The notes beneath the pieces are model-generated. The model had not been told where the DNA came from and did not search any database. It saw only the letters and a list, made by a program, of their open reading frames with translations. This document shows, piece by piece, positions 6,601-60,869 of a stretch of 64,000 nucleotides of DNA. Source of the stretch: Scenedesmus sp. PABB004 (lineage: Eukaryota). How positions within the stretch are numbered: position 1 is the first letter of the stretch; every line of letters begins with the position of its first letter. The position numbers and the translations under genes were made by a program. Location of the stretch: positions 2,046,001-2,110,000 of the forward strand of contig CM026547.1 of assembly GCA_014905635.1 (NCBI GenBank), in the 5' to 3' direction.

Positions 6601-9600
6601 GCGCGCGGAGCAGCGCGCCCGCGCGCGGCCGCCGCGCGCGCGGCGGCGGCGCGGCAGCAGGACATGAACCTGGCGGACCTGCTGGCGGCGATGCCGGACG
6701 ACGCGCGTGCCGACGCGTTCACGCAGCTCGATGACGGCGCGCTCGCGCAGCTGCCCGCGCAGGTGACGCGCGGGGCGGGCGGGGCGCGCCCGCCGCGGCG
6801 CCTGCCGCCGCGGGGCTGCTGGCAACGCGTGCGCCGCGCCCCTGCACTCACGGCCCCCACCCACCACCCGCCCACGCCCGCGCCCGCCCGCAGATGCGCG
6901 CGCAGGCGCAGGCGCTGCGGGAGCGCGCGGTGCGGCAGATGCAGCAGGCGCAGCAGGCGGCGCAGCACCAGCAGGCCGCGGCGGCCGGCATGCAGCAGGC
7001 GGCCGATTTCCCGATGTGGCGGCCGCTAGTGGACGGCCCGCTCGGCGGCGGGCCGGGGCGCATGGCGCTGCCGCTGCTGGGGCCCAACGGCCTGCCGCTT
7101 GGCGGCGGGCGCGGCACCTTTGTGAGCGTCTCCGCCGCGCTCGGCGCTGGCCGCGGCGGGCGCGGCGGCGCGTCGCGCGCGGAGCTGCTCGAGGCAGCGG
7201 CGCGGCGCGAGGCGGAGCCGGAGGGCCCGCCCGTGCTGGAGGAGCCGGAGCTGGCGGTGCTGGTTCAGCTGCTGCGCGTGAGCCTGCCGCTGAGCAAGGC
7301 GCACCTGCAGAAGCTGCTGCTCAACCTCGCGGGGCACAGCGTCACGCGGCAGTGCCTGCTGAGCATGCTGCTCGGCCTCGTCCGCGGCCTGCCCGGCGCG
7401 GCGGCCGGCGGCGGCGAGGCCGACGAGCAGCTGGGCGACGCTGGCGAGGCGGGGCGGGCGGCATGGACGTCGCGTCCGACGACGAGCGCGGCGCGCCGCC
7501 GCCCCGCGACCTCGCGGCCGCGCTCGACGCGGCCGTGCCGGCGCCGGCCGAGCCGGGCGCGGGCGGCGCGGGCTCGCCGCTGGGCGGCGGCGCTGGCGGC
7601 AAGCCGGCGGTGGTCGCGCGGCGCGTGCTGGACATGCTGGCCTTCCTCGCGCGGCACAGCGACAGCGTGTCGCGCCAGCTGCTCAGCCTGCGCGCGCCCG
7701 CGGCGCCGCCGCCGCCGCGCGCCGGCGACAAGGGCAAGGCGCCCGCGGCGCCCGCGGGCGGCGCGGCGCCCGAGCCGCGCGCGGTGGAGGTCCTGCTGGG
7801 CCTGCTGGCGGCGCCGCTGTGCCAGCGGAGCGTGAGCCTGCTGGAGCAGCTCATGCTGCTGCTGGAGGTGGTGCTCATGAGCGTGCAGCGCCACGACGCA
7901 GCGCAGGCCGTGCTGCAGTCCGTGCGCAGGCAGAGGGAGCTGGAGGCGGCGGCCGCCGAGCGCCGCAAGCAGCAGCAGCAGGCGGCGGCGACGGCGGCGG
8001 CGTCGGAGCAGGCGGCGGTGCAGGAAGCAGCAGCGGACGCTGGCCAGGCGGGCCAGCAGCAGCCAGAGCAGGCACCACCGCAGCAGGCGGCGGCAGCCGC
8101 TGGCGGCAGCGAGCAGCCAGCACCGCCGGGGCTGGCCCCAGGCGCTGCGCCGTCGCAGCAGCAGGAGCAGCAGCAGCAGCAGCAGCAGCAGCCGGCGTCC
8201 ACGCCCTTCCAGGCGGCGGCGGGCGCGCAGGAGCAGCAGTCGGCGGCCAAGGCGGCAGAGCCGCCGCCGCCCGGCGAGCTCGCGAGCACGCTTGCCAGCA
8301 TACCGGCGCCGCTGCTGTCGCAGCTGCCGGGGCTGCTGGCGGCCGAGTCGCTGAGCGAGCCGGCGTACGTGAGCGTGGCCAAGGTGATCAAGCTCGTGGT
8401 CGAGGCCGCGCCGGCGCGCCTGCCGCTCATGCTGGGCGTGCTCGTGGACGGCGTGGCGGGCGTGGGCGCGACGCTGCTCACCTGCCTCGACGCCGCGGCG
8501 GCCAAGGGCATCGACGCCGACGCGGAGCTCGCACCCACGATCGGCACCAAGAGCGGCGTCGTGCTGCGCATGCTGCACGCGCTGCAGGGTTTCCAGGCCG
8601 AGGTCGCCGCGTGGGCAGAGGCGCAGCAGCAGGAGCAGCGGGAGCGGGAGCGGGAGACGCAGCAGCAGGCGGGCGCCGCCGGGGCGGCGGCCGCGCGGCG
8701 GCCGCGGCGGGCGTGGCGTCGAGCAGCGCCGCGGCCGGCAGCAGCGCCGCGGCCGGCAGCAGTGCCGCGGCCGGCAGCAGCGCCAGCGCGGCGCCGCCGA
8801 GCAGCCTGGACCCCGCCGCGGCGGTGGCGGAGGTCGAGGGTGCCGTCGCGCTCATCGCGGCGCGCACGGCGCCGCTGTGGGCGAGCCTGAGCGCCGCCAT
8901 CCTGCGCGTCGAGGACAACCTGCGCGCGGTGCTGCCCGCGCACGGCATGGCCGGCGGCGAGACCGCCGGCAGCGCGGCGGCGCGGCTGCTGCCGCCCGGC
9001 GCGCAGCAGGTGCTGCCGCTGGTGGAGGCGTTCTTCGTGCTGTGCGCGCTGCGCAAGGCCATCCCGTCGCCGCCCAGCCAGGCCAAGGACCTACTCGCGG
9101 CGCCCAGCCTCGACGCGCACGCGCTCGGCGGCGGCGGCGGCGGCGGCGAGCCCGCCGGCAGCGGCGACGGCGCGCGCGGCACGCCGCCGCCGGGCACGCC
9201 CGCGGGCGCGCTGCGCCGGCTCGGCTCCGCCGCACCCGAGGGCGACGCGGGGTCGGCGCCGTTCCTGCGCTTTGCGGAGCGCCACCGGCGGCTGCTCAAC
9301 GCCTACATCCGGCGCCACACGGGCCTGCTGGAGAGCTCGCTCGCGCCGCTGCTGCGCGCGCCGCGGCTCATCGACTTTGACAACAAGCGCGCCTACTTCA
9401 GGTGGGGCGTGCGTGCGTGTGTGTGTGTGTGGGGGGGGGGGGAGGCTGTGGGGGGCTGGGGGCGCCGCAGCCCGCCCGCCGGCGCTCGACGCGCGCTCAC
9501 GCTGCCCGCCGCCGCCGCGTCCGCCGCCGCCGCGGGCGCGCGCGCAGGTCCAAGGTTCGCTCGCCCGACGAGCGCAGCTACGCGGGCAGCCTGCGGCTGG

Positions 9601-11115
9601 TGGTGAAGCGGAGCGCCGTGTTTGAGGACTCCTTCAACCGCCTGCGCGGCAAGAGCGCGGCGGAGATGCGGGGCAAGCTGAGCGTGTCGTTTGTGGGCGA
9701 GGAGGGCATCGACGCGGGCGGCGTGAGCCGCGAGTGGTACCAGGTCATGGCGCGGGAGATCTTCAACCCCAACCTCGCGCTCTTTGTGAGCGTGCCCGAG
9801 GGCGGGACGACCTTCCAGCCCAACCCCGCGAGCGTCGTGCAGAGCGCGCCGGGCGTGAGCCACCTCGAGTTCTTCACCTTTGTCGGCCGCCTCGTCGGCA
9901 AGGCGCTGCACGACGGCCAGATGCTGGACGCCTACTTCACGCGCTCCTTCTACAAGCACATGCTCGGCGCGCCGCTCACGCACGAGGACATCGAGGCGGT
10001 CGACCCCGAGTACTACAAGAACCTGCGCTGGATGCTGGAGCACGACATCACGGACGTCCTCGACCTCACCTTCACCGCAGAGTCAGACTTCTTCGGACGC
10101 ACCGAGGTGCGCGGCAGGGCACGCGCCAGGACGCGGCGGCGCGGCATGGCGCGCGTGCGCATGCTCGCACCGCGGCGCGGCGCGGCGCCCGACGCGCGCG
10201 ACCGCCCCGCCCCGCCCCCGCGCGCCGCGCAGGTGATCGAGCTGGTGCCGGGCGGGCGCGAGGTCAAGGTGACTGAGGCCAACAAGCACGCGTACGTCAA
10301 CCTCATTGCCCGGCACCGCATGACCACCAGCATCCGCGCACAGATCCAGGTGCGGCCCCGCCCGCCAGCGCGCGCGCCCACCGCCGCCCGCGCGCCGCCC
10401 GTCGCATCCTGCCCCCCCCCCCCTCCCCACACACAAGCACACTCACCTCCCCGCCCCGCCCCGCCCCGCCCCGCCCCGCCCCGCCCCGCCCCGCCCGCCC
10501 CGCCCCGCCCCGCCCCGCGCCCGGCCAGGCGTTCCTGGAGGGCTTCTGGCAGCTCGTGCCGCGGGCGCTGATCAGCATCTTCAACGACCACGAGCTCGAG
10601 CTCCTCATCAGCGGCCTGCCCGACATCGACGTCCCAGACCTGCGCGCCAACACCGAGTACAGCGGCTACACGCCCTCCAGCCCCGTCATTCAGTGGTTCT
10701 GGCAGGTCGTGGCAGACATGGACAAGCAGGACCTCGCGCTTCTGCTGCAGTTTGTCACAGGTGCGGCCCCACGGCTGCCGCGCCCGCGCGCCACGACGCG
10801 ACGCGGCGCGCGCGGGCGCCGCCGCTCCGCCGCCGCCACCGCGCGGGCCCTGACGCCGCGCGGCCTCTGACGCGCCCGCGCGCCTCGCCCGCAGGCACGA
10901 GCAAGGTCCCGCTGGGCGGCTTCCGCGCGCTGCAGGGCATCAGCGGGCCGCAGCGCTTTCAGATCCACAAGTCCTACGGCGCCACCGACCGCCTGCCCAG
11001 CGCGCACACGTGCTTCAACCAGCTCGACCTGCCGGAGTACGACTCCAAGGACCAGCTCGCGGAGCGCCTCGCCATGGCCATCCACGAGGGACACGAGGGC
11101 TTCGGCTTCGGCTGA
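1..11115 (+). CDS. UPL1: HECT E3 ubiquitin ligase, UPL1/HUWE1 family (5'-truncated, multi-exon)
   Basis: HECT domain motifs: [53 protein letters not shown], and [16 protein letters not shown] (catalytic Cys), ending GFGFG* at 11115. Ubiquitin-binding repeats [14 protein letters not shown] and [14 protein letters not shown] at ~6200-6600. [10 protein letters not shown] motif and an acidic region. Several frameshifts in GC-rich exons. Confidence 0.95.
10449..10516. repeat. (CCCCG)n pentanucleotide microsatellite in a HECT-gene intron
   Basis: Visible ccccg tandem run. Confidence 0.85.
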
Positions 11116-17721: not shown

Positions 17722-20700
17722 ATGCTGCTGGGAGGTCTGTCGTCGCGGGCGGCGGCGCCATCGCTGCGGCAGCAGGCGCCGCGGCACGCAGCGGCGGCCG
17801 CTGCCGGCGGCAGCGGCGCCCGGCGCCCGCGCCGCGGCGGCCCCGGCCGCCGCCCCGAGCCCGATGCGCAGCCCGCTCCGGTGACGTCGGACGGTGAGGC
17901 CGCGCGGCGCGCTCGCGCGCGCGCCCCGCGCGGCGCTGGCGCCGCCGCTGCTCACGGCGCGTGCGGCCTGCACAGAGGCGCTCATCCGGGAGCTCAACAG
18001 CGCCCACCTCTGGCTGCCGGGCGAGGAGGACGACTTTGGCCTGGACGACGTCGCGGGTGCGCCGCGCCCCCGCCCGCGTCGCCCGCCCGCGCCGGGGGTG
18101 CCAGCAAGCGCCCCCGTGACGCCCGCCCCCCTGCGTGCGCCCGCCGCGCGGCCGCAGCGCACGTGGCGAGCCGCAACCAGGCGCAGACGCTGGGTGGGGG
18201 CGGCGACCCCGTGCAGGCCGCGGGCAGGGGCGGCCCTGCGAAGCGCCGCGCCGCGCGCGGCGCGCCGCCGCCCGCGACGCTGGCGGGTATCGACCCCGCG
18301 AGCGGGCAGCTGCCCGCGTGGGTCGCCGACCTGCAGGCGGCGGGCTTTGAGGTGCGCAGCCGCAGCGGGGAGCTCTTCTTGCAGCGCGGCGGCGGCGACG
18401 ACGCGGGCGAGGAGGAGCCCGGCGACGCCGACGGCTTTGGCAGCGAGCGCGCGCGGCCGGCGGCGCCGCCGCCGGCGCCGGCCGAGGCTGCTGCGGCGGA
18501 GGCGGCGCAGCGCGCGGCGGCGGCTGCGGCGGCAGCGGCGGCTGCTGTGCCTGACAAGAGCCTGGCGGTGCGGGGTGAGTTTGATCCCCTCGTCTGGCAG
18601 CAACAGCCTGCGGGCGGCGGCCAGCACACGCCATTGGCGCCGCAGCGGGCGGCCGACGCGTGGTACGGGGCGCCGGAGGCGCCGCCGCAGCAGCAGGAGC
18701 GGCAGCAGCGGCAGGAGCAGCAGCAGGAGCGGGAGCCGCTGCCCCCGCCCAGCGCGCCGCGCCGCCCGAGCGGCAGCGCCGGCGCGGCCGACGTGCGGCG
18801 GGTGCTGCTGGGGTTCAAGCACCCCGACGCGCTGCTGGCGCACCTGGAGGCGACCTTCCCCGTCTGGGCCGCAAACGGCTGCTGGCTGCTGGACCAGCAG
18901 GCGGCGGGCGTGGTGGCGGCGCCCACGCCGGCGGAGGCGGGGGTCGCCCTGAAGGGCGTGGCGCTGGCGGCGAAGCGCGCGGGCCTCAACCCGTTGCAGA
19001 TGCAGAGCCTGGTGCGTGCGGGCGCGGCGCGCGTGCGCGCGCGCGCGGGCCGGCAATGCTGCGGCGGCGGTCACCCTGCTCACCCAACGCGCACCCCGCG
19101 CGCACCCCGCCCCGCAGGCACGCGACCGGCGGGTGCTGGGCCTCGCCGAGGCGATGCGCCTCGCCTCGCCGCGCCTGCCGCCGCACCAGGCGCCCGCCAT
19201 CACGCAGCGCCTGTGGGGCGTCGCCAAGGCCTACTGGCGGTCTGCGGGCGCGACGGCCGCGGCGGCGCAGCAGCTGCTGCTCGCGGCGGTCAGGGCGCAG
19301 CGGCCCGCGCAGGAGCTGAGCGGCACCGCGGCGGGGCAGGTGCCGGCGCTGGGCCCGCTGCTGGCGCAGCTGCAGGCGGCCGGCGTAGGGCTGTCGCGGG
19401 AGCAGCTCGGCGCGGCGGCAAGCCTGGTGCGCGCGCGCGCCGACGACCAGGTGCGCAAGGCGGCGTTTGTTGGCGGCGTGTGGGGCCTGTCGGTGCTGGG
19501 CGGGCCGCTCTTCTTTGCTGACGAGGTCGAGGCGCTCACCCAGGTGCGGCGCCCGCCCGCGCGCCTGCCGGCGGGACGGGGGCGCCCCGGCCCGGCCGCG
19601 CCCCCGCGCCTGGCTGACCCCGGCCGGCGGCGCGCAGGTCGCCGCGCTCGGCCGCTGGGCGCTGGCGCCGCACGAGGTTTCAGACGTGCTGTGGGCGCTC
19701 GCGAACGCGCGGCACTGGAGCCCGCGCCTGGGCGAGCTGGAGGCGGCGCTGCTGGCCGCGGGCGGGCCGCGCGCCTGCACCGCGCCGGAGCTGGTGACCG
19801 CGCTGTGGGCGTTTGCCACGCTCGGCCACACGCCCGCCAGGCTGCTCGCGGAGCTGGATGCGCGGGGCTGGTGCGTCAAGCCCGCCAGCGCGCTGCCCGC
19901 GGCGCAGCGCGGGCGGCAGCCGCCGCCGCCGCAGCAGCAGCAGCGGCGGCAGCAGCAGCAGCAGGCTGGCGCGCGGGGGCGGCGGCAAGCCGCAGCAGGC
20001 GGCGGGGCGGCTGCACGAGCTCTCGCCGTCGCAGCTCACGTCGCTGGTGTGGTCGCTGGCGTGCATGCAGCGCGTGGACGGCGCGCTGTTCAGGGCAGCG
20101 TGGCAAGAGGTGTGCGTGCGGGGGCCGCGCCTCGGCGCGGAGCCCACGGGCCTGGTGCGCGTGGCGCAGGCGGCGCTGGCGGTGGAGCTCGAGGGCAGCT
20201 ACGCCCCTGACGCGCTCTACTGCGACGACGGTGCGGCGCGCGGGGAGGGCAAGGAAGAAGGGGGGGGGGGGCGCTGACGGCGGGACGGGGCCGCGCGGGC
20301 GGCTCACGCGCGCGCGCCGCCACCCCGCCGCGCGCGCAGGCACGCGCCAGCTGCTGGGCGACGCGGCGGCGGCGTTCAAGCGCACGAGCGGCGCGCTCGC
20401 GGCGGCGCGCGCGCACAGCAGCTACCAGCGCAGCATCGCGGCCAGCCTGGGGCGGCTGCGCGTGATGCACGTGCTGGAGGACGTGCGCGGGGCTACGCGG
20501 TGGACGTCACGCTGCCGGGGCTGCGCGTCGCGATCGAGGCGGACGGGCCGAGCCACTGGGCGCGCAACGCGCCGCGGCAGCGCCTCGGCGCGACCGCGAT
20601 GAAGCGCCGCCACCTGCAGGCGCTCGGCTGGGCGGTCGTGAACGTGCCCTACACCGTCTGGGACGGCCTGGCAGGCGAGGAGGCGCGCGCGGCATACCTC

Positions 20701-44236: not shown

Positions 44237-47200
44237 TCACGCGCCGCGGCCGTCGAGGCCGAGGAGTGCGGCGAGGCGCGCGCGCTGCGCGGCGCGGTCC
44301 CCGCCCAGCGCGTCCCACTCGTCGACCGCCAGCGCCGCGACGCGCCAGCCGGCCGCCTCCAGCGCGGCGTGCTCCAGCGCGGTGCGGCCGAGCGCGCGCG
44401 GCGGCCAGCTCGCGCTCACCGCTGCGGCCGGCAGCAGCGCGACCGCGACGGGCGGCGCGCCCGCGCCCAGCGCGGCGCCCGGCACGCCGACGCGCACGCG
44501 CAGGCCGCCGCCGCCGCCGCCGGCGCACGGCGCGAGCCAGCGCTGCACGAGCGGGCGCAGGCCCATGCCCGCGAGCGCGGAGGCCGCCTGCTGCTCGGCC
44601 TCGCTCAGCGTGGCGGCCGCCTCGGCGTGCTCCCAGGCGGCGGCGCACTGCCGCGCCAGCTTGCCGCGCAGCAGCGCCGCGGCCTCGCCGGGCGGCACGC
44701 CCGCGGGCGGGCGCCGCGCCGCGCCGGCGTGCTCGCGCGCGCCGGCGTCGGCACCGGCGGCTGCGTCGGCGACGTCGGCGGAGTCGGCGGCGGCGGCGTC
44801 GCAGTCGCCGCAGTCGTCGCCGCCGTCGCCGCCCAGGCCGGCGTGCGCGCCCCAGGCCACGACGCCCCAGTCGGTCGCGAGCAGCGTGAGCGCGTGGTGC
44901 AGCTGCACGCGCCGCGCCGCGCCCAGGCGCGCCGCGCCCGCGCCCTGCAGCGCGCGCAGCACCGCCGCCAGGAACGGTCCGTGCGTGCAGTGCGCGCCGC
45001 CGGCGACGGCGGCCCACGCCAGCAGCGCGAGCGCGTCGGCGGGCCAGGCGCGCAGCTGGCGCGCCCAGCGCGCCGCCTGCCGCTCGCCGGCCGGCGCGGC
45101 GGCTGCGGCGGCGCCCGCCTCGCGCTCGGCGCTCGGCGCCGCGCGCGCGCCGCCGTCGCCGCGCCGGCGCGCACGCGCGGGGTGCTGGCCCAGCACGCTG
45201 GCAGCCTGCAGCGCGTCCAGGCTCGGCCCGCAGTCCTCGCGCAGCAGCGCAAAGCTCTGCAGCAGCCCCGCGATGTGCGCCGGCGCGAGCTCGCCGTCGC
45301 GCAGCAGCGGCGCCGCTGCGTCGCGCAGGGCGGCCATGAGCTGCGGGTCGTGCCAGCCCAGCCCCGCGAACGCGTACGCCAGGTTGCACACGCCCTGGGG
45401 CGTGAGCTGCTTGGGCCGCAGCGCGCGCAGCGCCGCGCCGTGGAGGGCCGACGCGGGCGCCTGCGGCCGGCTGCTGCCGCCGGCCGCCGCCGCGCCGCCC
45501 AGCCACGGCGCCGGCCCGCGCGCGGCGGGCGGCGGGCCGCCGGCGCCGGCGCCGCCACCGCCCCGCAGCGCGAGCGTGGCGACCGCTGCGCTCGTCGCCG
45601 CGCCGGCGAGGCCCGCGAGCAGGCCGGGCTCGCGGAAGCGCGCCTTGGCGGCCACGAGCGCGACGCCGCACACGTCCTGCGCGTTGTAGGTCCCCAGGTT
45701 GGCCAGTATGGCGGGGCTGGCGGCGCGCAGCACGCCGCACGGCACGCGGCCCATGCGCCCGAGCGCCCAGAGCGTGGTGGCCACGCCCTGCGGGCTGAGC
45801 TGCGGCAGCACCGCCTGGAACTGCGCCGCGGCCGCGGCGGGCAGCCCCGGCGGCAGCTCGCCGCCCGCTGACGCGGCCGCCCACGCCCAGTTGCTGAGCG
45901 ACTGCGGGCCAAACAGGTGCAGCGTGCGCAGCGCCCGGCGGTGCAGCGCCTGCTGCGCGCCGCGGCGGCGGTGGCGCAGCACCTCGAGCGCCCACGCCGC
46001 CTGCGCGAGGTCGCGCGGGCTGGCGCCGTCTGCCACCGCCACCAGGCGCGCGCACGCCGCGTCGAGGGCCGCATCGTGGCGGTGCCGCTGCACCGCGCAC
46101 GCCCACAGCAGCGAGCACACCTCCTGCGGCTTGGCGCCCGGCAGCAGCCCCACCGCGGCGTCGCACAGCGCCGCCATCGCGGCGCGCGCCTCGCCGCCGG
46201 AGGCTGCGCCGGCGCCGCCGTCCGCCTGGCCCAGCTTGGCCAGCGCCCAGGCGGTGTTGGCCACGCCCTGCATGGTGAACCCGCCCGCGACGCGCGCGGC
46301 GTGCCGCCCCGCGGCCGCCGCCAGGGCGGCGTCGCGCACGCCGAGGCTGGCCAGGCCCCACAGCAGCACCGACAGGCTGTGGGGCTCAAACTCGGACATG
46401 CTCGCGAGCGCGCGCACGCGCAGCGCGCTCAGCAGCCGCGCGTCGTAGTGCCGCAGCCGCGCGGCGCCCCACAGCAGGCGCGCGAGCGCGCGCGGGCTGA
46501 AGCGCTCCATGCGCCGCGTGGCCGCCCCGCACAGGTCCGACACCGCGGCGTGGTGGTAGTGCCCCGCGCGCCCCGCCGCCCACAGCAGGCAGGCGACGCT
46601 GTCGGGCGGCAGCGCGCCGGCGGCGCCCCGCACGCGCTGCAGCACCGCGTGGAGCAGCCCCGGCTCCTGCGCCCGCGCCGTCGCGAGCGCCCACGCCAGC
46701 AGCACGCAGTCCTGCGGGCCCAGCTGCTCCAGCTGCTCGCCGGCGACGCTGGCGAGCTCTGCCCAGACGCCGCGCTGCCGCACCTGCAGCCTCGCCAGCG
46801 CCCACGCCGACCGCGCCACGACGTGTGGCGGCGCCTGCGCCTGCGCCTGCTGCTGCTGCACCTGCGGCTGCTGCTGCGCCTGCTGCTGCTGCTGCTCGTG
46901 CACCTGTCGGTGCTGCTGGCACGCCTGGTGCAGCGCGCGGTGCACCAGGTCGGACGCGAGGCGCTCCAGCACCGCCGGCGGCAGCGCCACGCGCGCCGCC
47001 GCCGCCGCCGCCAGGAAGGCTGCGAGCGCGTGCGCCGACGCCGCGGGCAGCCGCGCCGCGAGCGCGCCCGCGAGCTGCTCCGCGAGCGCCCGCTGCAGGT
47101 CGCCAGCGCGCGCCCGCTCCCGCGCCGGGCGCGCCTGCTGCAGCGCCAGCAGCTGCTGCATGGCCACCGCCAGGCAGCTCGGCGGCAGCTCGCGCAGCCG

Positions 47201-47705
47201 CGGCTGCAGCACGGCGGCGAGCTCGTCCACGCTGCCGCAGCGCCGCAGCGCCGCCGCGACGCGCTCCACCTCGCCGCGCGCGTACACGGGGCGCGGCCGC
47301 AGCTGCTGCGCCCAAGGCTGCTGCTGCTGCTCGGGCTGCTGCGCCTGCGACGGCGGCGCCGCCAGGGCCTGCTGCGGGTCGGCCAGCAGCAGGCCCACCG
47401 CCGCGGCCCCGTGCACCTGGCCCGTCTGCACGAGCGCCTGCGAGCACGGCGGCGGCGGGGAACAGCCGCTGTTCTGGGCGCGCTCCCGGGCGGCAGCGGC
47501 AGCCTACCACGCAGCGCGCTGCTGCTGCTGCGCCGGCGCACCTGGATGGCCAGGTCCGCGAACCCGCCTCCCTGCGGCGCCGCAGCAACGGGCCGCACGA
47601 CACGCGGCGCGCTGCGGGCGGCGGGCGGCGCGGATCAGGCGGCGCGGGGGCGGCGCGGTCGGCGGTGGTAGGCGCCGCGCCGCGCCGCGCCGCTGGGCGC
47701 CCCAT
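44237..47705 (-). CDS. Octotricopeptide-repeat (OPR)/RAP-domain protein; 5' exon uncertain
   Basis: 1064-aa ORF with ~38-aa repeats (PQDCVLLAWALA, PHSLSVLLWGLASLG, PQSLSNWAWA, PQGVCNLAYAFAGLG) and a degenerate RAP domain (LEAAGWRVAALAVDEW). Confidence 0.85.
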
Positions 47706-50454: not shown

Positions 50455-52227
50455 ATGAGTGGGGCGCTCGCCATGCTCACGGCCTCGCTGCGGGGGTCCG
50501 CTGCGGAGCGGGGCGGGGCTCCACTGCTGCGTGGCGGCGGGCGTGCTGCGGGCGGGCGGGCGCTGTGCGGCGTGCGGGCCGCGGCGGCCAAAGCGGCAGG
50601 GGCCCGCGCAGCCGGGGCCAAGGCGGCGCCGCCGGCGAGCGCCGCGGCGGCCAAAGCGGCGCCACCGGCGAGCGCCGCGGCGGCCAAGGCGGCGTCGCCG
50701 GTGCCGGCGGCGGGCTCGCCGCCGCGGCTGCTGCTGGTCGACGGCCACAGCATTGCTTGCAGGGCCTTCTACGCGCTCCAGCGCTCGCTCGCGCCGTCAA
50801 CGGGTACGGCGCGCGGCGCGGCACCCACAGCGCGCGGCGCAGCACGCGGGGGCCCAGCGCGCGCCCGGGGCGCGTGGCGCGGCGCGGCGCTGAGACGCCG
50901 GCGCCCTCCCCCCTGGTCTGCGCCGCGCGCCCAGCCGACGGCATACCGACGTCGGTCGTGTTTGGCTTCACGCGCAGCCTCCTGGCGATCACGGAGCAGG
51001 AGCGGCCGCACGCGCTGGTGGCCGTCTTTGACGCGCCCGGGGGCAGCGCGTTCCGCGCGCAGCTGCTGCCGACCTACAAGGCCACCCGCGCGCGGTTGCC
51101 GCCGAGCTTTGCCCCTGACCTGCGCAACCTGCGCACGCTGCTGGCGCACATGCGCGTGGCCACGGTGAGCGTGCCGGGGTTTGAGGCGGACGACGTCCTC
51201 GCCGGCCTCGCGGCGCAGGGCAGCGCGCAGGGCGCGGAGGTGCGCATCTTCTCGTCCGACTCTGACCTCTGGCAGGCGAGCGGCACGCGCACGCGCGCAC
51301 GCGCGCGCGCGCACGGCCCCCGCCGGGCCCGCGCCGCCACTCACGCGCGTCCCGCCGCCGCCGCCGCCGGCAGCTGGTCGACGACGCCGCGCGCGTCGCG
51401 GTGCTGCTGCCGGCGCCGGCGTCGCGGCCGGCGGCGGGGCGCGGAGGGCAGGCGCGGGCGCCCGCGGGCGCGCTGCTGGACGAGGCGGCCGTGCAGGCGC
51501 GGCTCGGGGGCGTGCCGGCGCACCTCGTCGCCGACTACAAGGCCCTGGTCGGGGACGCGTCAGACAACGTGCCGGGCGTGCGCGGCGTCGGGCCCAAGAC
51601 CGGCGCGGAGCTGCTCACCGCCGGCGGCAGCCTGGCGGGCGTGTTCGGGGCGCTCGAGGCGGGCCAGCTGCGCGAGGCGCTCGCGCGCAAGCTGCGGGGG
51701 CAGCAGGCGGCCGCCGAGCGCGCGCTGGAGGTGACACGCCTGAGGTGGGCGCCGGACCCCGCGCCCGGGCGTGGTGGCCCGCGTCGCCCCGCGCGCCGCG
51801 CCGCCGGCGCCGGCCAGGCCCGAGACCCCGCCGCCGCCCGGGCGGGGGCCGCCCCGCCGCGCAGGCCCGAGGCCGCGCCGGCGCTGGACCTCGCCGCGTG
51901 CCGCATGGCGGGCTTCTGCGCCGCCGAGGTCGAGCCGCTGCTGCGGCGGCTCGAGCTTAACAGCCTGGTCAGGGGCCTGCCGGCGCTGCAGGCGGCGCTC
52001 GGCGGTGCGCGCGGGCCGCGCGCGCGCCCCCGCCGGCGCGCGGCCGCGGGCGCCTCTGCCGCAGCCCGCCGGCGCTCACCGCCGCCGCCGCGGTCGGCGC
52101 AGGGCCCGCGCCGCCGGACCCGCAGCTCACGGCGTCGCTGCCGGCGGCGCTGGCGTCGCTGGAGGGCGCGCGGCCTGTGGAAGGGGGGCCGCGGCGAGCT
52201 GAGCCGGGCTGCTGCGTGGAGGGCTGA
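50455..52227 (+). CDS. Pol I-type 5'-3' exonuclease / flap endonuclease (organellar OEX-like); termini approximate
   Basis: LLLVDGHSIACRAFYAL, AVFDAPGGSAFRAQLLPTYKATR, PGFEADDVLA, SSDSDLWQL and DYKALVGDASDNVPGVRGVGPKT. Confidence 0.88.
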
Positions 52228-52603
52228 ACGCGGCGCTGGCCCGTGCTGCGGGTGCTGGCCGGCGGCCCTCGCGCGGTCGTCGCCGTCACCGCACGAAGAA
52301 GGAGGCAGCTCGCCCTGTCGCTGGTCCTCAACACCACGCAGCGCAGAGGGTCATCCTCTCTCGCTGGCCCGAGGCCGCGCACCCCGGGCGCGGAGTGCCG
52401 ACGGCGGCGCGCGCGCGCCTCTGTCCCGCCGCGCGGCGCGGGTCGGGCGCGAGCGCACGCTCTCTCTGCGGCCGCGCCAGCGCGCTGCGCGGCCCACGAC
52501 GCTGCGGCGGGCAGGCTGACGGTGGTTTGGACGTGCTACACAACCGAAGGCGTAGCTGCCCCCGGGGCCCGCTGGGCAGCCCTGCACCGGGCACCGCAAC
52601 GCA

Positions 52604-53037
52604 CTAGGAGCGCGCGACTTCTGAACGGCCGCGCGAGGCGCGGCCGCCACCAGCAGGCAGGCTCCAACAGCAGCACGACAAAACCGGGGCGCGGCCAGCA
52701 CACCTTGTTCAGGTGGCCTGCTGGTGTTCTTTATTACTAGCCGCACACACACGTGTGTGGCGCCCGGGGCCGCTTGCCCCCAGACGCGTCGGGCGTCCCG
52801 GCGGGACGCCCCGCGAGGGCGCAGCGTGCTGCTGTGCACACGGTCATCGGCCGCACACACACCACACATGAGCAGACGCGCAGGCAGGTCCTGAGCAACT
52901 CGGACGCAGGCGCCGCTCAAACCCATTTAAGCCCGGCACCCGCCGCGACCGGGCACCGGCCGCCGCCGGGGCGCGCGCCCCGGCGGCGGCGACGGCTGGG
53001 ACCTCGGACCTCCGACCTCGGGACCTCAAACTCAACT
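52604..53037 (-). ncRNA. Candidate Fanzor omegaRNA scaffold region
   Basis: Immediately 3' of the Fanzor stop. Perfect 32-nt palindrome 52959-52990, stem 52791-52811, stem 52766-52780, palindrome 52746-52759 and stem 52626-52646. Confidence 0.45.
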
Positions 53038-56000
53038 TCAGCCCGCCCCTGGCTCCCAATCCATATCGTCGCCGTCAGACTGGGGCGGCGTGAGCTCGCC
53101 CCCGCCGCCCCGCCCGCGCCCGCCACGCCCGTGCCGGCCGCCGCCCCGGCCCCGCCCGCCGCCGCGGCCGCACCCGCCGCGGTCACGCCCGCGCGTGGCG
53201 CGCGCGGCCGCGCGCACCGCGCGCGTCGCCGCCGCGCCGGCGGTCGTGCTGGCCAGGCCGACCTGCGCCTCGGTGAAGCCGGCCGCCAGCAGGCGCTGGC
53301 GGTCGGCGTTCACAAACGTCTGCGCCAGGCCCAGCGCGGCAATGTTGGCCGCCGCGTTTACGTCGCGATTGAACAGCAGCGGCCGCGGCGGCACGGCGTC
53401 GGTGCGGCAGGTGCCGTAGCACTGCCGCACCTTGAAGCCGTCGCGCTTATTCATGCCGGGCGCGGCGTTGGTGGTGGCCGCCATGCAGGCGTGGTGGACC
53501 TGGGAGGTCCAGCACTTATTCACAATCATGCAAACACAATACCCATGGCGCTCGCCAAACCTGACGAGCGTCTTGACCGGCGCGTCCTGGGGGCGCGCGA
53601 TGATCGACCCCCGCCCGGCGGACGCGCTCCCGACAAACAGCACGGCCGCCGGCGCGCGCGCGCGGTGCTCGACGCGGCGCCGCAGGTATCCCAGGCGCCC
53701 GCGCCCCTGCCTGAAGAAGGGCGTCCAGCGCCCGCGCACCGTATGAAAGGTCGTGTTGGTGCACGTGTCAAAGTTGCGAATGCGCTAAAAAACCGGTGCA
53801 TCTCCTTGTCGTTCAGCATGTGCACCCGAAACTCCCACGCACACGCATGCATGCAGCCGTAAACACAAAATGCACGGTCAAACAGGCCCACGCGCGCGCC
53901 CGCCGCGTCGGCGGCGGCCAGGAAGCTGCCGCAGAGCCGCGGCGCGCGCGTGGCCAGGCCCTCCTGCGCGCGCGCAAACGTCCGACGTGCCCCCGCCCCC
54001 GGCCCCCTCCGCCCCGCGCACCCGGGTTTCTTGGTTGCGTGTGCGGTTATTGAATGCTGATGCGTCCCGATACCCCCGCATTGAGAGCGTCACCACGTCG
54101 GCGCCGCCCCGCGCGTCGTGCGCGGCGGGGCAGCGGTGCTGCGCGGCGGTGCGGTGCCCGCGGCGCGTGCAGCCGCAGGCAGGGTGCGACAGCGCCCGGC
54201 ACGCGGCGATGTCGCCGAGGCCGGGGTCCCAGCCCCACGCCAGCGTGCGCCCCAGCGCCGCCACGGCCGCCGGCGCGGCCGGCCGGGCGGGGTCAAACGC
54301 GGCGTCGAGGACCGCGCCGCCGGCGGCGAGCGCGGCCTGCGCGCGCGCGCGGTCGTCGGCCTTGAACGCGCGGCGGTCGGCGGCGCCGGGCCGGGCGGGC
54401 CGGCGCCAGGGCGGCAGCGGGTCGCGCGACGGCGGCGCCGCCGCCGCTGCAGCCGCCGCCGCCGCGGGGTCGGGCGCCGGCGCCAGCCCGGGCTCGGCGT
54501 CGCTCGAGCCCGGCTCGGCGTCGCTCGAGCCCGGCTCGGGCGCCGGCGCCGGCGCGGGGGCAGCCGGGTCGGCGCGCGCCCGCATGACACATGCATCGTA
54601 TCCATTTGTGCAAAGCTGGCCGGACGCGCGCCACGTGCGGGGTGCTGAGCCCGTCGCGATCAAGCCAGTCCGCCTCACCCTCGAGGTCAAACCCGGGGCA
54701 CGCGGCGCGCTGCAGCTCGAGCGTGTCGCGGTGCAGGTGCCCCTGGGCAGTCTCAAACAGGTGGAGGTGAACCCGCCCGTAGTGCTGCCGCGGCTGCAGC
54801 GAGAAGCCGCGGCGCCCCGCGAGCGCGTCGCAGCGGCCGCGCGCCTCGCTCAGCTTGCGCAGGCGCGCGAGCAGCGCGTCGTCCACGCCGGGGGCAAACG
54901 CCGCCGCGCGCGCGCGCGGCGCCGCGTCGCCTGGCAACCCCGGGTTGCGCTGGCGCAGGGCGGCGATGGCGCTGTCGGCCTGCAGCTCGGCCGCGCGGCA
55001 CGCGGCCAGGCCGTCCTCCAGCACCTCCGCCGCCAGGTGCTGGTAGAGGACCGCCGCGTCGGCGTCCAGCCGGTCCAGCAGCTCGCCCGCCACCGCCAGG
55101 CTCTGCGGCGCCGCCGCCGGCAGCGCCGCCGGCGGGTGCTACGCGCGCTCCTGCGCGGCCGCCGCAGCGACATGATCGCCGAGGTGCCGCCCGGCAAAGC
55201 GCAGCGCGCGCGCCCGCGCCTCGCCCAGCTGCTGGCCCGCGCCGGCGAGGGCCGCGTGGGCGGCCTGCGCGCCGGGCCAAACTGCAGCCAGGGGCCCTGG
55301 CGCCGCCTGCTGCTGCCACGCGGCCGCCTCGAGCTGCTCGCGCGCATCTGCCAGCGCGCCCAGGGCGGCTGCCATCTGCTGGCACGCGGCGCCCAGCACG
55401 GCCTCGCGCAGCGACCAGTCGGCGCACGCCGCGGCGGCGGCCGCCGCCGCCGCGGCGTCCGCCGCCGCCGCGTTGCCCGCCGCGGCCGCTGCCGGCTGGC
55501 CCCGAGCGGCAGCGGCGCGGCGGCGGGCAGGGCCGGGCGGGTCGCCCTGAAGCGTTCCAGCTTCGCCGGCCCCCATTCCGTCGCCGCCGCCTTGGCCTTG
55601 CCGCCGTCGCGCAGCGCCTTCTGCAGGCGCGCCTGGCGGTGCTGCGCCTGCGTGCGGTAGCGCCGCTCGCCCGCAGCGCGGGGGCGCGGCGACGGCCGCC
55701 CGCGCTGCACCTCCGCGAGCGCCGCCTGCCTGGCCGGCCTGCGGGCCTCGTGGAGCTCGTGGCGCGCGACGCGCTGCGCCTGCTGGCTGACGCGCTCCGC
55801 CTCGCGCGCCAGCCACTGCGCCTGGTGCACGTGCGGGTAGCCGCCGCGCCGGCGCGCGACCAGCGCGTCGGGCAGCACGTCGCCGCCAAGCCGCACCGCC
55901 AGCGCAGCCAGGCGCTGCTGGGCGGCCGCCATGTCGGCCTTGAGCTGCTGCAGCGCCGCGAGGCGCTGTGGTGGCGCCGACGGCCCGGGCACGCTCGCGG

Positions 56001-57948
56001 CGCGCTGCGCCACGGCCCGCGGCGTGGCGGCGAGCTCCAGCAGCGGCAGCCCCTGCACCTGACGCACCACGGCCGCGCCTGGCGCGCGGCGCCGCCACTC
56101 CCCCACTGCCGCCGCCTGCAGGCGCTGGGTGAAGTAGTTGAACAGCAAGCACTTCTGCAGGTCGTTGAACGCAACCGCTGCGTCGGCCTCGCGGTGGGCC
56201 GCGTCTGCCTCGCCCTGCTGCCGCTGCGCCTGACGGAGCGCGTCCAGGCGCTGCGCGTGGCTCGGTTGTTGGGCCGGCTGCTGCTCTGCGTCGTCGTCGG
56301 CACCGGGGTCGGCCGGCGCGCCCGCGGGCGGCGGCGCCTCCATCGCCGCGCGCCAGCCGCCGTCGCCGCCGCCGCCGCCGCCGCCGCCGCCAGCGTGCGC
56401 CGAGCCGCGGCCGGCACGCAGCCACGACAGCAGGTCCGCCGTCACGCCCTGGTGGCCGGCCGACAGGCCCAGGGCCTGCAGGTCCTCCGCGCGGCCGGCG
56501 GGCGGCCGGCGGTTCCGCGCGCCGGCAGCGGCGGTCGCCGCCGGCCCGCCGGGCGCCGCGTCGCCGTCGCCGGCTGCGGCGTCGGGGTCGTGCTGCGGCG
56601 GCAGCGGCCGCAGCAGCTCGAGCCGCAGCGCCAGCGCGTGGCGCCGCAGAAAGTCCAGCGCGCGGCGCGCCTCCGCCTCGCCGCCGCCGCCGGCGCGGCG
56701 CAGCCGCGCGGCGGCCTGGGTCAGCCATGTGGCAGCCGGCTGCCACGCCGCGTCCCACGCGGCGGGGCTCTCCGCCAGCACGGCGCACACGAGCGCGCCG
56801 CCCAGCTTGGCGCGCTCGCGCGCCGGCGGGCAGCGCGCGCCTGCCAGGTTGGCGGCGAGGCAGACCAGCAGGTCGGCCAGCTTGCGCAGCCGCGGGTGCC
56901 GCGCGTGCAGGCGCACGTTAAGCGCAAACAGCCGGGTGTAGCCGTGCGCCAGCTCCTCCAGAAGCGTGGGGCTCACCCAGCGCGGCAGCTCCACCGCGGC
57001 CGCGCCCGTCGCCGCCCAAAAGAGCGGCAGCATGCGCTGCAGCTCCCATGGGGTGCGCGTTGCGCACGCCTCATGCTGCCGCCCTGGCAAGCTGGTGACC
57101 GCGAAGATCAGGTCCTCCAGCGCGCGCTCGCTGCCGGCGACCCAGCGCAGGTAGTCGGAGCACGCTGCGGTGGTCACGGGACCGTCTCGCAGCAGGCCCT
57201 GGCCGGCGCGTGGCACCTCGTGCCCGGCCACACGCCTGCGGGCGCGGCAGCGGCGGCGGGGTCGGCGCGCGAGGCTTGGGGCGGCGGTGGCGCCACGCGT
57301 GCGCGCGCGCGTGCGCGCTGCCGCCGCCGCGCCGCGCGGGCACTCACGCGCAGGCGTAGTGAGTCATGAGCTCGTGCGCCTGCCGCGCCATGTAGGTGGC
57401 CTTGCTCAGCAGCGTCACCAGCTGGTTGATGAGCTGCATTCGCGTGTCGACCAGCGCCGCGGGCAGGGCGGGCCGCCCCACACGCGCCGCGCGCGCCAGC
57501 GCGCTGCGCAGGCGGCGCACCACCGTGCCTGCGGGGGCGCGGCGCAGCGGCGGTCGTCGGCCAGCCTGCGCGGCGCGGCGTGGTGGGCAGTCGTGGCGCC
57601 GAGCCCGCCCGCCCCGCTCACCGATCCGGGCGCTCTCCTCTGCCCGCTCGCGCTTGGTGCGCGGGCCAGCCTGCCAGTGCCCGCCGGCCGGCGGCGCCGG
57701 GCGCTTGCGTGGCGCGGGCGCGCGCTGCTGCTGCTGCTGCTGCTGGTGCGCCTGCTGCTGTTGCTGCTGCTCCTGCCCCGGCTCCTGCTGCTGCTGCTGC
57801 TGCTGCCGCGCCGGCTGCTGCCGCGGCGCCGGCGCCGGCGGCGCAGCCCCCGGCGGCTCCTCCGCCGCGGCGCCCCTGCGGCGGCGCTTCCGGCACCTCC
57901 GCGCGCTGCCCGAGCTGCCGCTGCTGCCGGCGCTGTCGTTGCTGCTGC

Positions 57949-57983
<35 letters not shown>

Positions 57984-59730
57984 TCGCTGTCCAGCGGCGC
58001 CGCGGCGCCCTTGCCCTTGCCGCGGCGCTTCTTGCGGCTGCGCCGCCGCTGCTGCGGCGGCTGCGGCTGCGGCTGCGGCTGCGGCTGCGGCTGCTGCGGC
58101 GGCTGCGGCTGCGGCTGCGGCGGCGGCTGCGGCTGCTGCGGCGGGCCCGCCGCCGGGCCCCCACCTCGTCGCTGCCGGCCGCGGCGCTGCCCGCGGACGG
58201 CCCGGCGCTGGCGCCGCCCGCCGCCGGGGCGCCGCCCTCCTCGCCGCCGCCGCCGGGCGCCGCCTGCGAGGCCGCCGCGCGCCAGGTGGCAAAGGGGCCG
58301 GGCGCCCGGCGCACCGCCTCCATGGCCGCCGCGCGGTCGGCCTCGCGGCAGGCCTGCGCGCGGCGGCGCAGCTCCTTCCAGTCGGCGTCGCCCACGGGCT
58401 GGCCCGCGAGCTTGGCGGGGTCCTTGGCGGTGTCGATGCCGCGCGCGGGCGGCGGGCCCGGGGGGCCGCCGCTGCGCGCGCCGCTCGCGCCGCCGCCGCC
58501 GCCGACGCTGCTGGTGGTGCTGCTGGTGCTGCCGCTGCGCGCGCCGCTCGTGCCGCCACTGCGGCGGCCGCCGCCGCCGCCGCCGCCGCTGGCGGCGCGG
58601 GCGGCGCGGCCGGCGACGCGGCGCGCGTGCAGGTCCGCAAAGACCACGCGCTGCTCGGCGGCCGCCACGGCCTTGGCAGACGGCGGGGCCGCCGCGGCGC
58701 GCGCCTTGGACGCGGCGAGCTCCGCAGCTTCCTCCTCCGACTTGGCCCAGGCCGCCGCGGTGGCAGCCGCAGCAGCGCTCGCGGCGCGCTGCTCCGCGTC
58801 GCGCCGCGCGGCCGCCTCGGCCGCCTCGCGCGCCGCGCGCGCGCGCGCCGCCGCGCGCCGCAGCTCGTCGGGCGTCTCGGCGCACCCCGGCGGCGGCTCG
58901 CGCAGCACGTCCGCGCGCACGAGGCCGACGCAGTGGTTGATCGTGGCGTCCTCGAGCGCCGCGCCGTCGAAGCTGGGCGCAGCGGTGGCGGGCATGAAGT
59001 ACGCCGCCACCTCGCGCGCCTCCTCGTCGCACACCACCAGCTGCTCGCCGCGCTCCAGCGCGGCGAGCACCGCCTGCGGCGGGTGCTCCGAGACCAGCCG
59101 CAGGCCGTTCTGGTCGCAGAGCAGCCCCAGCTCGGCGGCGGTCAGGTAGGTGCTGCTGTCGAGCAGCGCCTCCGAGATCTCCCTGATCGCGAGCTGCTGC
59201 GCAGCAAAGTCGCCGCCGAGACGGTCGCGCGCCATCAGCACCGCGGCGTGCGCCTCGCGGCTCGCCGCGGGGTCGGCGAGCGAGAGCACGAGCGCCGCGA
59301 GCTGGGGGTGCAGCTCCTCGTGCGCCTCGCTGTCCAGCTGGCGCCGCGTGTGTGGCGGGAAGTCCGCCACGTCGGCGCCGGGCGCCAGGCGCAGCAGGTG
59401 CAGCAGGCGCCGCCGCACCGCGGCGAGCAGGTGCAGCGCGCAGTTGCCGTTCGGCACGCCGTGGAAAAACACCACGCGGCGCTCGCGCAGCCCCGGCGCA
59501 GCAGGTGCGCACGCGTGCACGTTGGGGGCTTTATCTCCTCGTCCTCCTCCCCTGCGGAACGGCGTCGGAGTCGCAGTCGGGCGTGGCAGCGGCGGGTCAG
59601 CCGGCGCGGCAGCGGCGCGGCGGCGGCGCGGGCGCTCGCCGGCGCCCATCATCTCTGCGGCCGCCGGCGCGGCGGCGCGGCGGCGCGGGCGCTCACCCCC
59701 GCCCATCCTTGCGCTCCTCCGCCGGCTCAT
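53038..59730 (-). pseudogene. Fanzor1 (eukaryotic TnpB-like RNA-guided RuvC nuclease) with N-terminal OTU-like domain; intron-containing, disrupted
   Basis: FSLQP..HLHL and SGQLCTNG (TDG-like). RuvC-I WGWDPGL (D at 54226-54228), bridge-helix-like YG...WEFRVH, then LFVGS. RuvC-II VNKCWTSQ, Zn-finger HHAC...CYGTC, RuvC-III NRDVNAAANI (D at 53362-53364). Introns 57529-57621 and 57236-57347. In-frame TAG at 55139-55141 and several frameshifts. Confidence 0.85.
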
Positions 59731-60869
59731 GGCTAGCCGCGGGCGGGCCTGCGCGGGGCGCCGGGCAGCGGACGGCGCGGCGCAGATGTCGATCGACCCC
59801 GCCCGCCCCGGACGCGGCAGCGCGCCGCGGCGGAGCGGCGCGCGTCGGTCGGTGTCGGACGACCCACCCGGACGCCATGGCGTGCGCGACGGGTGCGCGG
59901 GTGCCGCGCGTGGGCGCTGCCACGCTCTCGAAACCTCGCCTCTCGCTGCTGTGACGCCTCTGGAGCCACAGGGACACGAGATGAGCGCGGTAGCACTGGG
60001 GGCTGGGCGGGCGCTCGCGGGGACACCGCCGCGGCGGAGCGCGGGCGGCGGCGGTGCAGCGCTGGACCGCGCCCCGAGCCGCCGCTCTTCAGCCCGCGTG
60101 GGCCGGGCGGGCGCGCGCTGCCGCTCTTGCAGCAGCAGGCGAGGGAGGGCGGGCGGGAGGGCCTCTGCTGAGCGAGGGCAGAGCGAGGGCAGCGCGCAGG
60201 ACGGCGCGGGCGAGCTGGCGGTGGGGCGCGGGCCGGGGCACAGCAGCTCGCGGGGCTTTTGCGCAGGAGCGCCATGGTGGGCCCCGCGCCAGCCCTCCAC
60301 GACGCGCATCATCGGCCCCGCCTGGGCCTCCAGCTCGCGCCAGTGGCTGGGGCGCCGGCTGTTCCGCGAAACGCCGCTGTTCCGCTCGCCCCAGCGGTCC
60401 GCTGCGCTCATTGGCGCGCAGAACGATCCCCCATCGCATTCAGCCCCACGTACGAGGGTCGCACGGACCGACTCCTGCGTTTGCAGCCGGGAGGAGGCTC
60501 CTCTCCACACCTGGACGGCTGCGGCCAAGGCCAGGCATGGCTACCCAGGCGGGCCGCCGCCGGGCCCGGGGCGCCTGACCGCGGGAGCGTCGGGGGCCGC
60601 AACTGATGCAGCGTGGCGCCCAGTCGAGCCGGCAAGGCCTGCGGCGCGTCTCGAGCCATCCGCCGGCGGCGGTCGGCAGCGCGCCCGGGCGTGGAGCCGC
60701 GCCTGAGGTGAGCACGCGGCGGCGCCAGGGCGGAAGACTCAGCGATGCCCGCTGCGTGCCCCTCGCGCGTGCGGGCCCGCCGCGCCCGCCCGCGCCGGCC
60801 TCGGGGCGCACGGCCCGGAACGGGCCGCCCGGAGGCGCGGGCGGGCGCGGCGGCGCGCGGGGACCGAAA

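Follow-up and report, generated by a model that had tools for sequence, protein, structure and literature searches.

Coding evidence and gene model

The minus strand of a 64-kb window (the whole stretch analysed here, 64,000 nt of Scenedesmus sp. PABB004 contig CM026547.1) carries, from 59730 to 53038, an intron-bearing conceptual coding region of about 2,016 codons, the end of which resembles the Fanzor proteins. Within the RNA-guided TnpB/Cas12 nucleases the Fanzors form the eukaryotic branch; they attract interest as compact tools for genome editing. An initial annotation, made from the letters alone, had described this locus as a giant, multi-domain Fanzor1 nuclease of roughly 2,100 aa within a mobile element. 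We examined its coding frames, its relatives, its active site and its surroundings.

The GC content of the window is 74.5-83.6% per 2-kb bin, so that long open reading frames (ORFs) arise by chance in all six frames and an ORF alone is no evidence; open frames of hundreds of codons do occur in all six, and over 11 kb the stop-to-stop list counts 95 ORFs with a length of 50 aa or more. Frame choice was based on two measures, the periodicity of GC at third codon positions (GC3) and codon log-odds, for which eight host ORFs from the window served as the training set. Both favour a single minus-strand frame at a time (the three frames are termed f0, f1 and f2): f1 at 59500-58180, f0 at 58120-57348, f1 at 57235-55540, f0 at 55480-54680, f1 at 54580-54022, f2 at 53980-53790 and f1 at 53784-53260. 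This is the order predicted from the ORF fragments; the eight fragments stitched together in the initial annotation all exist, in the correct order, and the two measures pick the same frames for them. Because one frame at a time is picked, in order, the stitched region is coding or recently coding DNA. One stitch of the proposed single protein, the gapless switch from f2 to f1 at 53786-53785, cannot be an intron. Low-complexity windows (Ala, Gly, Arg, Ser, Gln, Pro) cover 1,168 codons, 58% of the conceptual frame, and this filler accounts for much of the giant size.

The gene model reads as follows, from 5' to 3' (a slash marks a splice position).

58165..59730, minus strand: candidate exon 1, f1; GC3 and codon log-odds favour f1 at about 59500-58180
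58049..58164, minus strand: candidate GT-AG intron, f1 to f0; donor GAG/GTGGGG; several in-phase acceptors within a CAG/CCG repeat, so the acceptor is ambiguous
57348..58048, minus strand: candidate exon 2, f0; codon log-odds favour f0, with a peak at 57460-57350
57236..57347, minus strand: best-supported intron, f0 to f1; 112 nt, GTGAGT...CCCGCAG, phase 2
55602..57235, minus strand: candidate exon 3, f1; largely helical-looking
55489..55601, minus strand: GC-AG intron or frameshift, f1 to f0; 113 nt, GCAAGG...CGGCAG, phase 1; the alternative is a shift near 55500
54679..55488, minus strand: candidate exon 4, f0; contains FSLQP and an in-frame TAG at 55141-55139
54447..54678, minus strand: candidate intron, f0 to f1; 232 nt, AGG/GTGAGG...CTGCAG/, phase 1; weaker alternative sites, acceptor ambiguous
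54022..54446, minus strand: candidate exon 5, f1; RuvC-I-like strand GWDPGLGD (Asp 54228-54226) and MRGYRDASAFNNRTRNQETR motif
53964..54021, minus strand: candidate intron, f1 to f2; 58 nt, CGG/GTGCGC...GCGCAG/, phase 0; the f2 signal begins at about 53980-53960
53787..53963, minus strand: exon 6a, f2; conserved helical segment between RuvC-I and RuvC-II, with a strong f2 codon signal
53785..53786, minus strand: zero-gap frameshift site, HRFF-ag-RIRNFD; one base fewer than in the relative P0001 (HRFAQRLTNFD)
53041..53784, minus strand: exon 6b, f1; RuvC-II, zinc finger, RuvC-III and RGG-rich tail; stop TGA at 53040-53038
Exon 6b residues, minus strand: Gly 53631-53629; Lys AAG 53517-53515; TS 53508-53503; His 53496-53494; Asp 53364-53362
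52700..53000, minus strand: 3' flank; 14-bp GC hairpin at 52990-52959 and AATAAA at 52735-52730

Introns were predicted from sequence and phase, by in-phase enumeration of GT-AG and GC-AG sites. Four of the frame changes can be explained by in-phase introns with host-like signals (58164-~58049, 57347-57236, 54678-54447 and 54021-53964). This supports an intron-bearing gene, as the initial annotation had it, with predicted host-type spliceosomal introns in phase. The best of them, at 57236-57347, excises the f0 stop TGA at 57346-57344, and the f1 coding signal that follows it begins upstream of the first f1 ATG. Throughout exon 3, from 57220 to 55540, f1 outscores the other frames in codon log-odds in each 60-nt window, although its score drops below 3 in five windows and below zero in one (57100). 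The GC-AG intron at 55489-55601 is the sole in-phase candidate for the f1-to-f0 change that is not strongly contradicted, and f1 log-odds are still positive there. On either side of the TAG at 55141-55139 the favoured frame is f0, and the introns able to remove this codon have weak donors (GTCGCT, GCGCGG etc.). This TAG and the f1-to-f0 change near 55500 are possible further lesions.

Host genes of the window offer a view of local splicing. The 5'-3' exonuclease gene has a GC-AG intron at 51275-51378 (plus strand; CAG/GCGAGC...GGCAG/CTG) that joins ...SDSDLWQ to LVDDAARV..., so splice prediction in this 80% GC genome must allow GC donors. In the HECT-domain gene there are C-rich introns at 10350-10527 and ~10760-10893 (plus strand) with GTGCGG donors, the first containing a long (CCCCG)n-like tract.

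Homology, active site and reading frame of the 3' part

A phmmer search with the piece 53784-53263 against 1.84 billion representative proteins returned seven matches at E<=1e-3, five of which are true relatives (P0001, the best at E=2.8e-22, P0003, P0005, P0006 and P0007); the other two are bacterial repeat proteins aligned over a short Gly/Pro stretch only. At 31.8 bits, P0001 clears the curated PF07282 cut-off of 26.3 (the family being Cas12f1-like TNB, the TnpB zinc ribbon). Three of the other relatives, at 24.3-25.6 bits, fall below this cut-off and one falls far below it. With a profile of six sequences the best solved match was SpuFz1 (8GKH; E=2.7e-4), from the RGRW..F motif through RuvC-III. 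It was followed among PDB matches by the mimivirus TnpB-like L79, LaTranC, PpFz1 (a Parasitella Fanzor1) and Cas12f. SpuFz1 had both the top score and the longest alignment (23.5 bits, profile 94-252); L79 (9B0L), which we take to be a Fanzor2, reached 20.7 bits over the finger only. The tentative Fanzor1 label comes solely from this best PDB match.

We also built a hidden Markov model (HMM) from the five relatives, leaving out the window sequence, and searched with it the 633 ORF pieces that the six frames of the window yield. Two of them are matched by this homologue-only HMM, 53041-53784 in f1 (E=9.2e-29, profile 86-271) and the piece of exon 6a in f2 (E=2.9e-9, profile 21-85); the third-ranked piece, an upstream f1 piece at profile 1-24, is not significant (E=0.81). 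Exon 6a is 48% identical to residues 57-96 of P0001. These alignments support descent of the 3' part (the last ~1 kb) from the TnpB/Fanzor family. The family assignment of the initial annotation thus stands, its C-terminal fragments aligning with the TnpB/Fanzor RuvC-zinc-finger core. Direct matches of window pieces were found neither in Pfam (eight fragments; four sub-pieces at E<=10) nor in NCBIfam (six pieces). A phmmer search of the PDB with the last ORF gave RGG-type low-complexity matches only.

The conserved Fanzor core at 53500-53880 (minus strand) has the lowest GC of the locus, 48-58% in 50-nt windows against ~80% for the genome; its third positions are nonetheless mostly G or C.

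Metagenome scans with A2 and P0001 found no related loci, nor did scans of viral and prokaryote genome contigs with A3; a viral scan with P0006 gave one weak 39-residue match (L001). A word-indexed search with the last piece had no match, which is weak evidence; it covered longer proteins only, and the true relatives of 215-332 aa fall outside.

The motif given for the TnpB/Fanzor family in PMC3627910 is D-X(125,275)-[TS][TS]-X-X-C4 finger-X(5,50)-RD, and in a read-through model the spacing at the locus fits it (D-X220-TS, finger, X13-RD). The RuvC-III Asp (53364-53362) lies in NRDVNAAANI, 13 residues past the last finger Cys, and aligns with SpuFz1 D606. The candidate RuvC-I Asp (54228-54226, in GWDPG) is 220 residues before the TS in the same model; the family profile does not extend over RuvC-I. 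A global MAFFT alignment of the RuvC-I piece with P0005 and P0006 placed it wrongly, onto RuvC-II, and was set aside.

The initial annotation had listed a series of Fanzor1 landmarks in order. All of the strings FSLQP, TNG, GWDPG, LFVGS, WTSQ (53508) and NRDVNAAANI are present, but TNG is probably intronic: it lies within the candidate intron 54447-54678, and at 54640 no frame is favoured by codon log-odds.

Fanzors are described as having Gly or Pro at the canonical RuvC-II Glu position and an alternative Glu about 45 residues downstream; in ApmFNuc, mutation of the equivalent alternative Glu abolished cleavage (PMC10530073). The Mg ions of SpuFz1 are reported to be coordinated by D383, N385, E541 and D606 (PMC10432273), and in the profile alignment E541 and D606 occupy the 'vdE..TS' and 'nRD' columns. 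The Gly of LFVGS (53631-53629) aligns with the Gly of SpuFz1 VVMGDWS and with a Gly in all five relatives, as the initial annotation had claimed for the canonical Glu position. Its second claim for the active site, a downstream xxE..TS, fails: in the alternative-Glu column (SpuFz1 E541) all five relatives have Glu and the locus has Lys (IVNKCWTSQ; AAG 53517-53515), 38 residues past the Gly. The zinc finger it had noted is present, but in the form HxxC...CxxxC rather than C4, the first ligand being His (CAC 53496-53494) where all five relatives have Cys. Of the 19 alignable columns invariant among the relatives the locus keeps 16, and two of the three differences are the catalytic Glu and the zinc ligand. 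Judged by its residues, the locus does not look like a working RNA-guided nuclease.

The frame is also broken within this core. Positions 85 and 86 of the homologue-only HMM correspond to adjacent codons in different frames (f2 and f1) at 53786-53785, and in-phase enumeration found no GT-AG or GC-AG pair that bridges the junction while keeping the conserved residues. Because the frame switch is gapless and no intron fits, this is a 1-nt frameshift or an assembly error. Left unshifted, f2 meets a stop codon at 53528-53526, ahead of RuvC-II, the zinc finger and RuvC-III. Programmed -1 slippage on the TTTTTTA run is ruled out, as the -1 frame reads TAG immediately; length errors of +/-1 in the T run leave the frame unrestored. 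For comparison, four frame changes in host genes were checked, and each spans a gap of ~100-440 nt that has a GTGCGG or GCGAGC donor and a CAG acceptor, as expected of introns; the DUF92 domain in the window is covered end to end in one frame. The assembly is thus not visibly indel-ridden.

Upstream region, 3' flank and setting

For the upstream ~1,300 codons no relatives were found in Pfam, NCBIfam, the PDB or the databases searched. PDB phmmer searches with the N-terminal piece and with the f0 piece gave nothing relevant. Word-indexed searches, which are weak evidence, gave no match for the N-terminal piece among proteins of 128-408 aa or for residues 40-610 of the middle ORF among proteins of 460-1465 aa. 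The multi-domain character proposed initially found no backing in this region, no extra domain having been detected in these codons and low complexity prevailing over the whole as noted above. AlphaFold2 models are of low confidence, with a predicted local distance difference test score of 38.8 for 59559-58861 and 43.6 for 53784-53263 (six-row alignment).

Exon 1 has a globular-looking N-terminal stretch (59500-58900) followed by Ala/Gly/Ser/Arg-rich filler, and its putative start, the ATG at 59730-59728, is an uncertain assignment. At this putative 5' end there is a 54-nt direct duplication (59597-59650 and 59654-59707, 80% identity), so that MGGGERPRRR... is encoded twice. The motif NGNC...INHC in the stretch 58900-59500 (minus strand) presumably recalls OTU-type cysteine proteases; no Pfam, PDB or fold support for this was obtained. 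Exon 2 consists of poly-Q/S/R filler with RKKRRGKGKG, which resembles a nuclear localization signal (NLS), and then a non-repetitive end, MQLINQLVTLLSKATYMARQAHELMTHY.

Nothing in the window marks the locus as part of a mobile element, as had been proposed. The 64 kb hold no second copy of it, no recognisable terminal or flanking inverted repeats (there are only low-complexity direct and inverted repeats around the locus) and no transposase or helicase by Pfam match among 60 distinct ORFs outside the locus. Rfam identified no known RNA family in 52300-60600; a radC match was below threshold and outside the gene. The 300 nt after the stop have a fold z-score of -3.09, with none of 100 shuffles as stable, although this is not specific. 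Directly after the stop codon, at 52959-53030 (minus strand), stand a short GAGGTCC-type tandem repeat and a perfect 14-bp GC hairpin. The hairpin region could be a 3' untranslated region element, a guide-RNA stem or a Helitron-like end hairpin, which are indistinguishable here.

The neighbours of the locus are the 5'-3' exonuclease gene (~49.7-52.5 kb, plus strand) and a PDDEXK_6 gene (60.6-62.5 kb, plus strand). Pfam matches of other ORFs in the window, these two included, are to HECT, DUF92, DNA polymerase eta/Rev1-type IMS, Mad3/BUB1, NAD kinase, TFIIA, FAST-kinase-like, 5'-3' exonuclease and PDDEXK_6 proteins. By its genes the surroundings are those of an ordinary eukaryotic nuclear region, and the intron style, like the gene set and the GC content, points to a green alga. 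Weak FAST-kinase-like (FAST_1) matches occur at 44240-47503 (minus strand) and 19798-20274 (plus strand), one of them in an uninterrupted 1,088-codon ORF with a GC3 of 0.97; these ORFs may be organelle RNA-metabolism genes of the sort typical of green algae. Apart from self-matches, the window shows a single DNA similarity, between 6383-6617 and 44908-45168 (69% identity over 266 nt, inverted), probably low-complexity coding repeats.

Interpretation and comparison with known systems

We favour, at a probability of roughly 0.6, the reading that the locus is a disabled relic of a Fanzor1-like (eukaryotic TnpB) gene, long resident in its host, with host introns and filler. The ancestor, as we infer from what is known of the family, would have worked like other Fanzors: a guide RNA, encoded at the 3' end of the same element, would have directed its RuvC nuclease. 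A Fanzor1-like gene would then have been resident long enough to acquire host codon usage and host-type introns; we suggest long residence because the codon log-odds are host-like and the introns have host-like donors and acceptors. Low-complexity filler would have inflated the gene to ~2,000 codons. The present copy would be disabled in three ways: the alternative Glu changed to Lys, the first zinc ligand became His, and a one-base deletion at 53786-53785 broke the frame between the RuvC-I and RuvC-II parts. It appears to stand alone between ordinary host genes, without a recognisable transposon. The homology, the frames, the residue changes and, in this assembly, the shift are observed; that the gene is now a pseudogene rather than misassembled we likewise infer.

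Several observations weigh against this reading. First, strong coding periodicity is maintained over the entire 6.7 kb. Second, the retention of 16 of 19 invariant columns is explained as well by selective loss of nuclease activity, in a protein still under constraint, as by early decay. Third, the frameshift is known from one assembly and may be a one-base assembly error; moreover, an in-phase 237-nt splice from 54021 to 53785 (acceptor TTTTTTAG) would keep the frame while skipping the f2 segment. Fourth, introns may contain the TAG at 55141 as well as the shift near 55500, which would leave only one firm lesion. Finally, the RuvC-I assignment is made at the level of the motif only, GWDPG resembling the GVDPG of P0005 and P0006 by eye with local alignments to both that are not significant.

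In an alternative that is unlikely but that we take seriously, splicing bypasses the shift or an assembly error explains it, and the locus encodes an intact but naturally nuclease-dead protein derived from a Fanzor. The host would have recruited it, for instance to bind DNA under RNA guidance, and its N-terminal extension would be long and disordered. The pattern of conservation would suit such a protein, since the few invariant columns lost include the catalytic Glu and the zinc ligand, and so would host-like codon usage and in-phase host-type introns along the whole locus, its single copy in the window between host genes without transposon features, and the NLS-like basic run; the 54021-to-53785 splice could bypass the shift. 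On the other hand, the zero-gap frameshift is present in the one sequence examined, a possible nonsense TAG and a second shift would have to be accommodated, and the upstream 1,300 codons have no detected relatives.

A slightly less probable possibility is that the model has joined two genes, one upstream (59730 to ~58000) and unrelated, the other Fanzor-like, shorter and starting at ~57500, the giant size then being an artefact of open frames at 80% GC. Long ORFs do arise by chance at this GC content, the coding signal is weak and of low complexity at 57940-57520, and no homology joins the parts. However, no stop, AATAAA, TGTAA signal or unperiodic gap separates them, f0 is favoured throughout 58120-57700, and the intron 57347-57236 shows coding entering from upstream of the first f1 ATG.

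More specific, and improbable, is the idea of a naturally nuclease-dead giant Fanzor1 derivative, recruited by the host, that would keep its RuvC/zinc-finger core apart from the catalytic Glu and one zinc ligand, would carry a largely disordered extension of ~1,300 residues and would bind DNA under RNA guidance rather than cut it. If true, it would be a eukaryotic counterpart of the bacterial nuclease-dead TnpB regulators.

Very improbable is the reading of the initial annotation, a working OMEGA effector or active Fanzor1 nuclease of unusual size and several domains within a mobile element: Fanzor homology, a RuvC-I-like Asp and a RuvC-III Asp, the Gly at the canonical Glu position as in Fanzors and introns as described for other Fanzor genes (PMC10530073) speak for it, but the essential alternative Glu is Lys, a frameshift lies inside RuvC, and no element ends or second copy, transposase (in the ORFs scanned), known RNA family (52300-60600) or extra domain was found.

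On the favoured reading of a disabled relic, the locus is most likely a dead copy that offers neither a new tool nor a new mechanism; its importance would rise if it were to give an intact, expressed protein without nuclease activity. It does add a divergent green-algal Fanzor lineage, one not detected directly by Pfam, and it illustrates how a host may reshape a Fanzor-like gene, through introns, codon usage and an approximately three-fold inflation by filler.

Its relatives P0001, P0003, P0005, P0006 and P0007 are 30-44% identical to the locus from RuvC-II to RuvC-III and share with it RGRW, GxASxGxGS, the TSQ finger and RD; a C-terminal LxAAGF is common to the locus and P0001. Unlike the locus, each of the five has Glu at the alternative position and Cys as the first zinc ligand. 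Their ORFs are contiguous, 215-332 aa long and probably fragmentary.

SpuFz1 (8GKH) has the same order of motifs as the locus (RGRW..F, RuvC-II Gly, TS-zinc finger, NRD). It is described as a 638-aa, intronless protein gene, flanked by 30-nt inverted repeats and present in multiple copies (PMC10432273, Saito et al. 2023), whereas the locus has ~2,016 conceptual codons, introns, Lys at E541, His at the first zinc Cys and a frameshift, with no repeats and a single copy in the window. Fanzors are also described as intron-containing and of ~600 aa (PMC10530073, Jiang et al. 2023); the conceptual frame is about three times this usual length.

Fanzors occur in green algae (PMC10288648, PMC12633428), and the Fanzor1 genes CRe-1/2/3 and CrFNuc of Chlamydomonas reinhardtii are described as borne on Helitron2 elements (PMC3627910, PMC10530073). 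By description, these share with the locus the green-algal nuclear setting and an intron-bearing Fanzor1-type gene; in contrast, the window ORFs scanned yielded no Helitron Rep/helicase, and no element ends were recognised around the locus. Algal Fanzor1 copies are described as often truncated or degenerate (Bao & Jurka 2013, PMC3627910).

For a host-recruited inactive Fanzor in a eukaryote, no report turned up among the 12 papers, of 5,516, listed in a literature search. A model for this reading is offered by the TldR proteins, prokaryotic nuclease-dead TnpB derivatives that act as RNA-guided regulators in bacteria. The locus differs from these in being eukaryotic, in carrying a frameshift and in being known here from DNA sequence alone; what it shares with them is that a RuvC catalytic residue has been lost while the TnpB-type protein is otherwise conserved.

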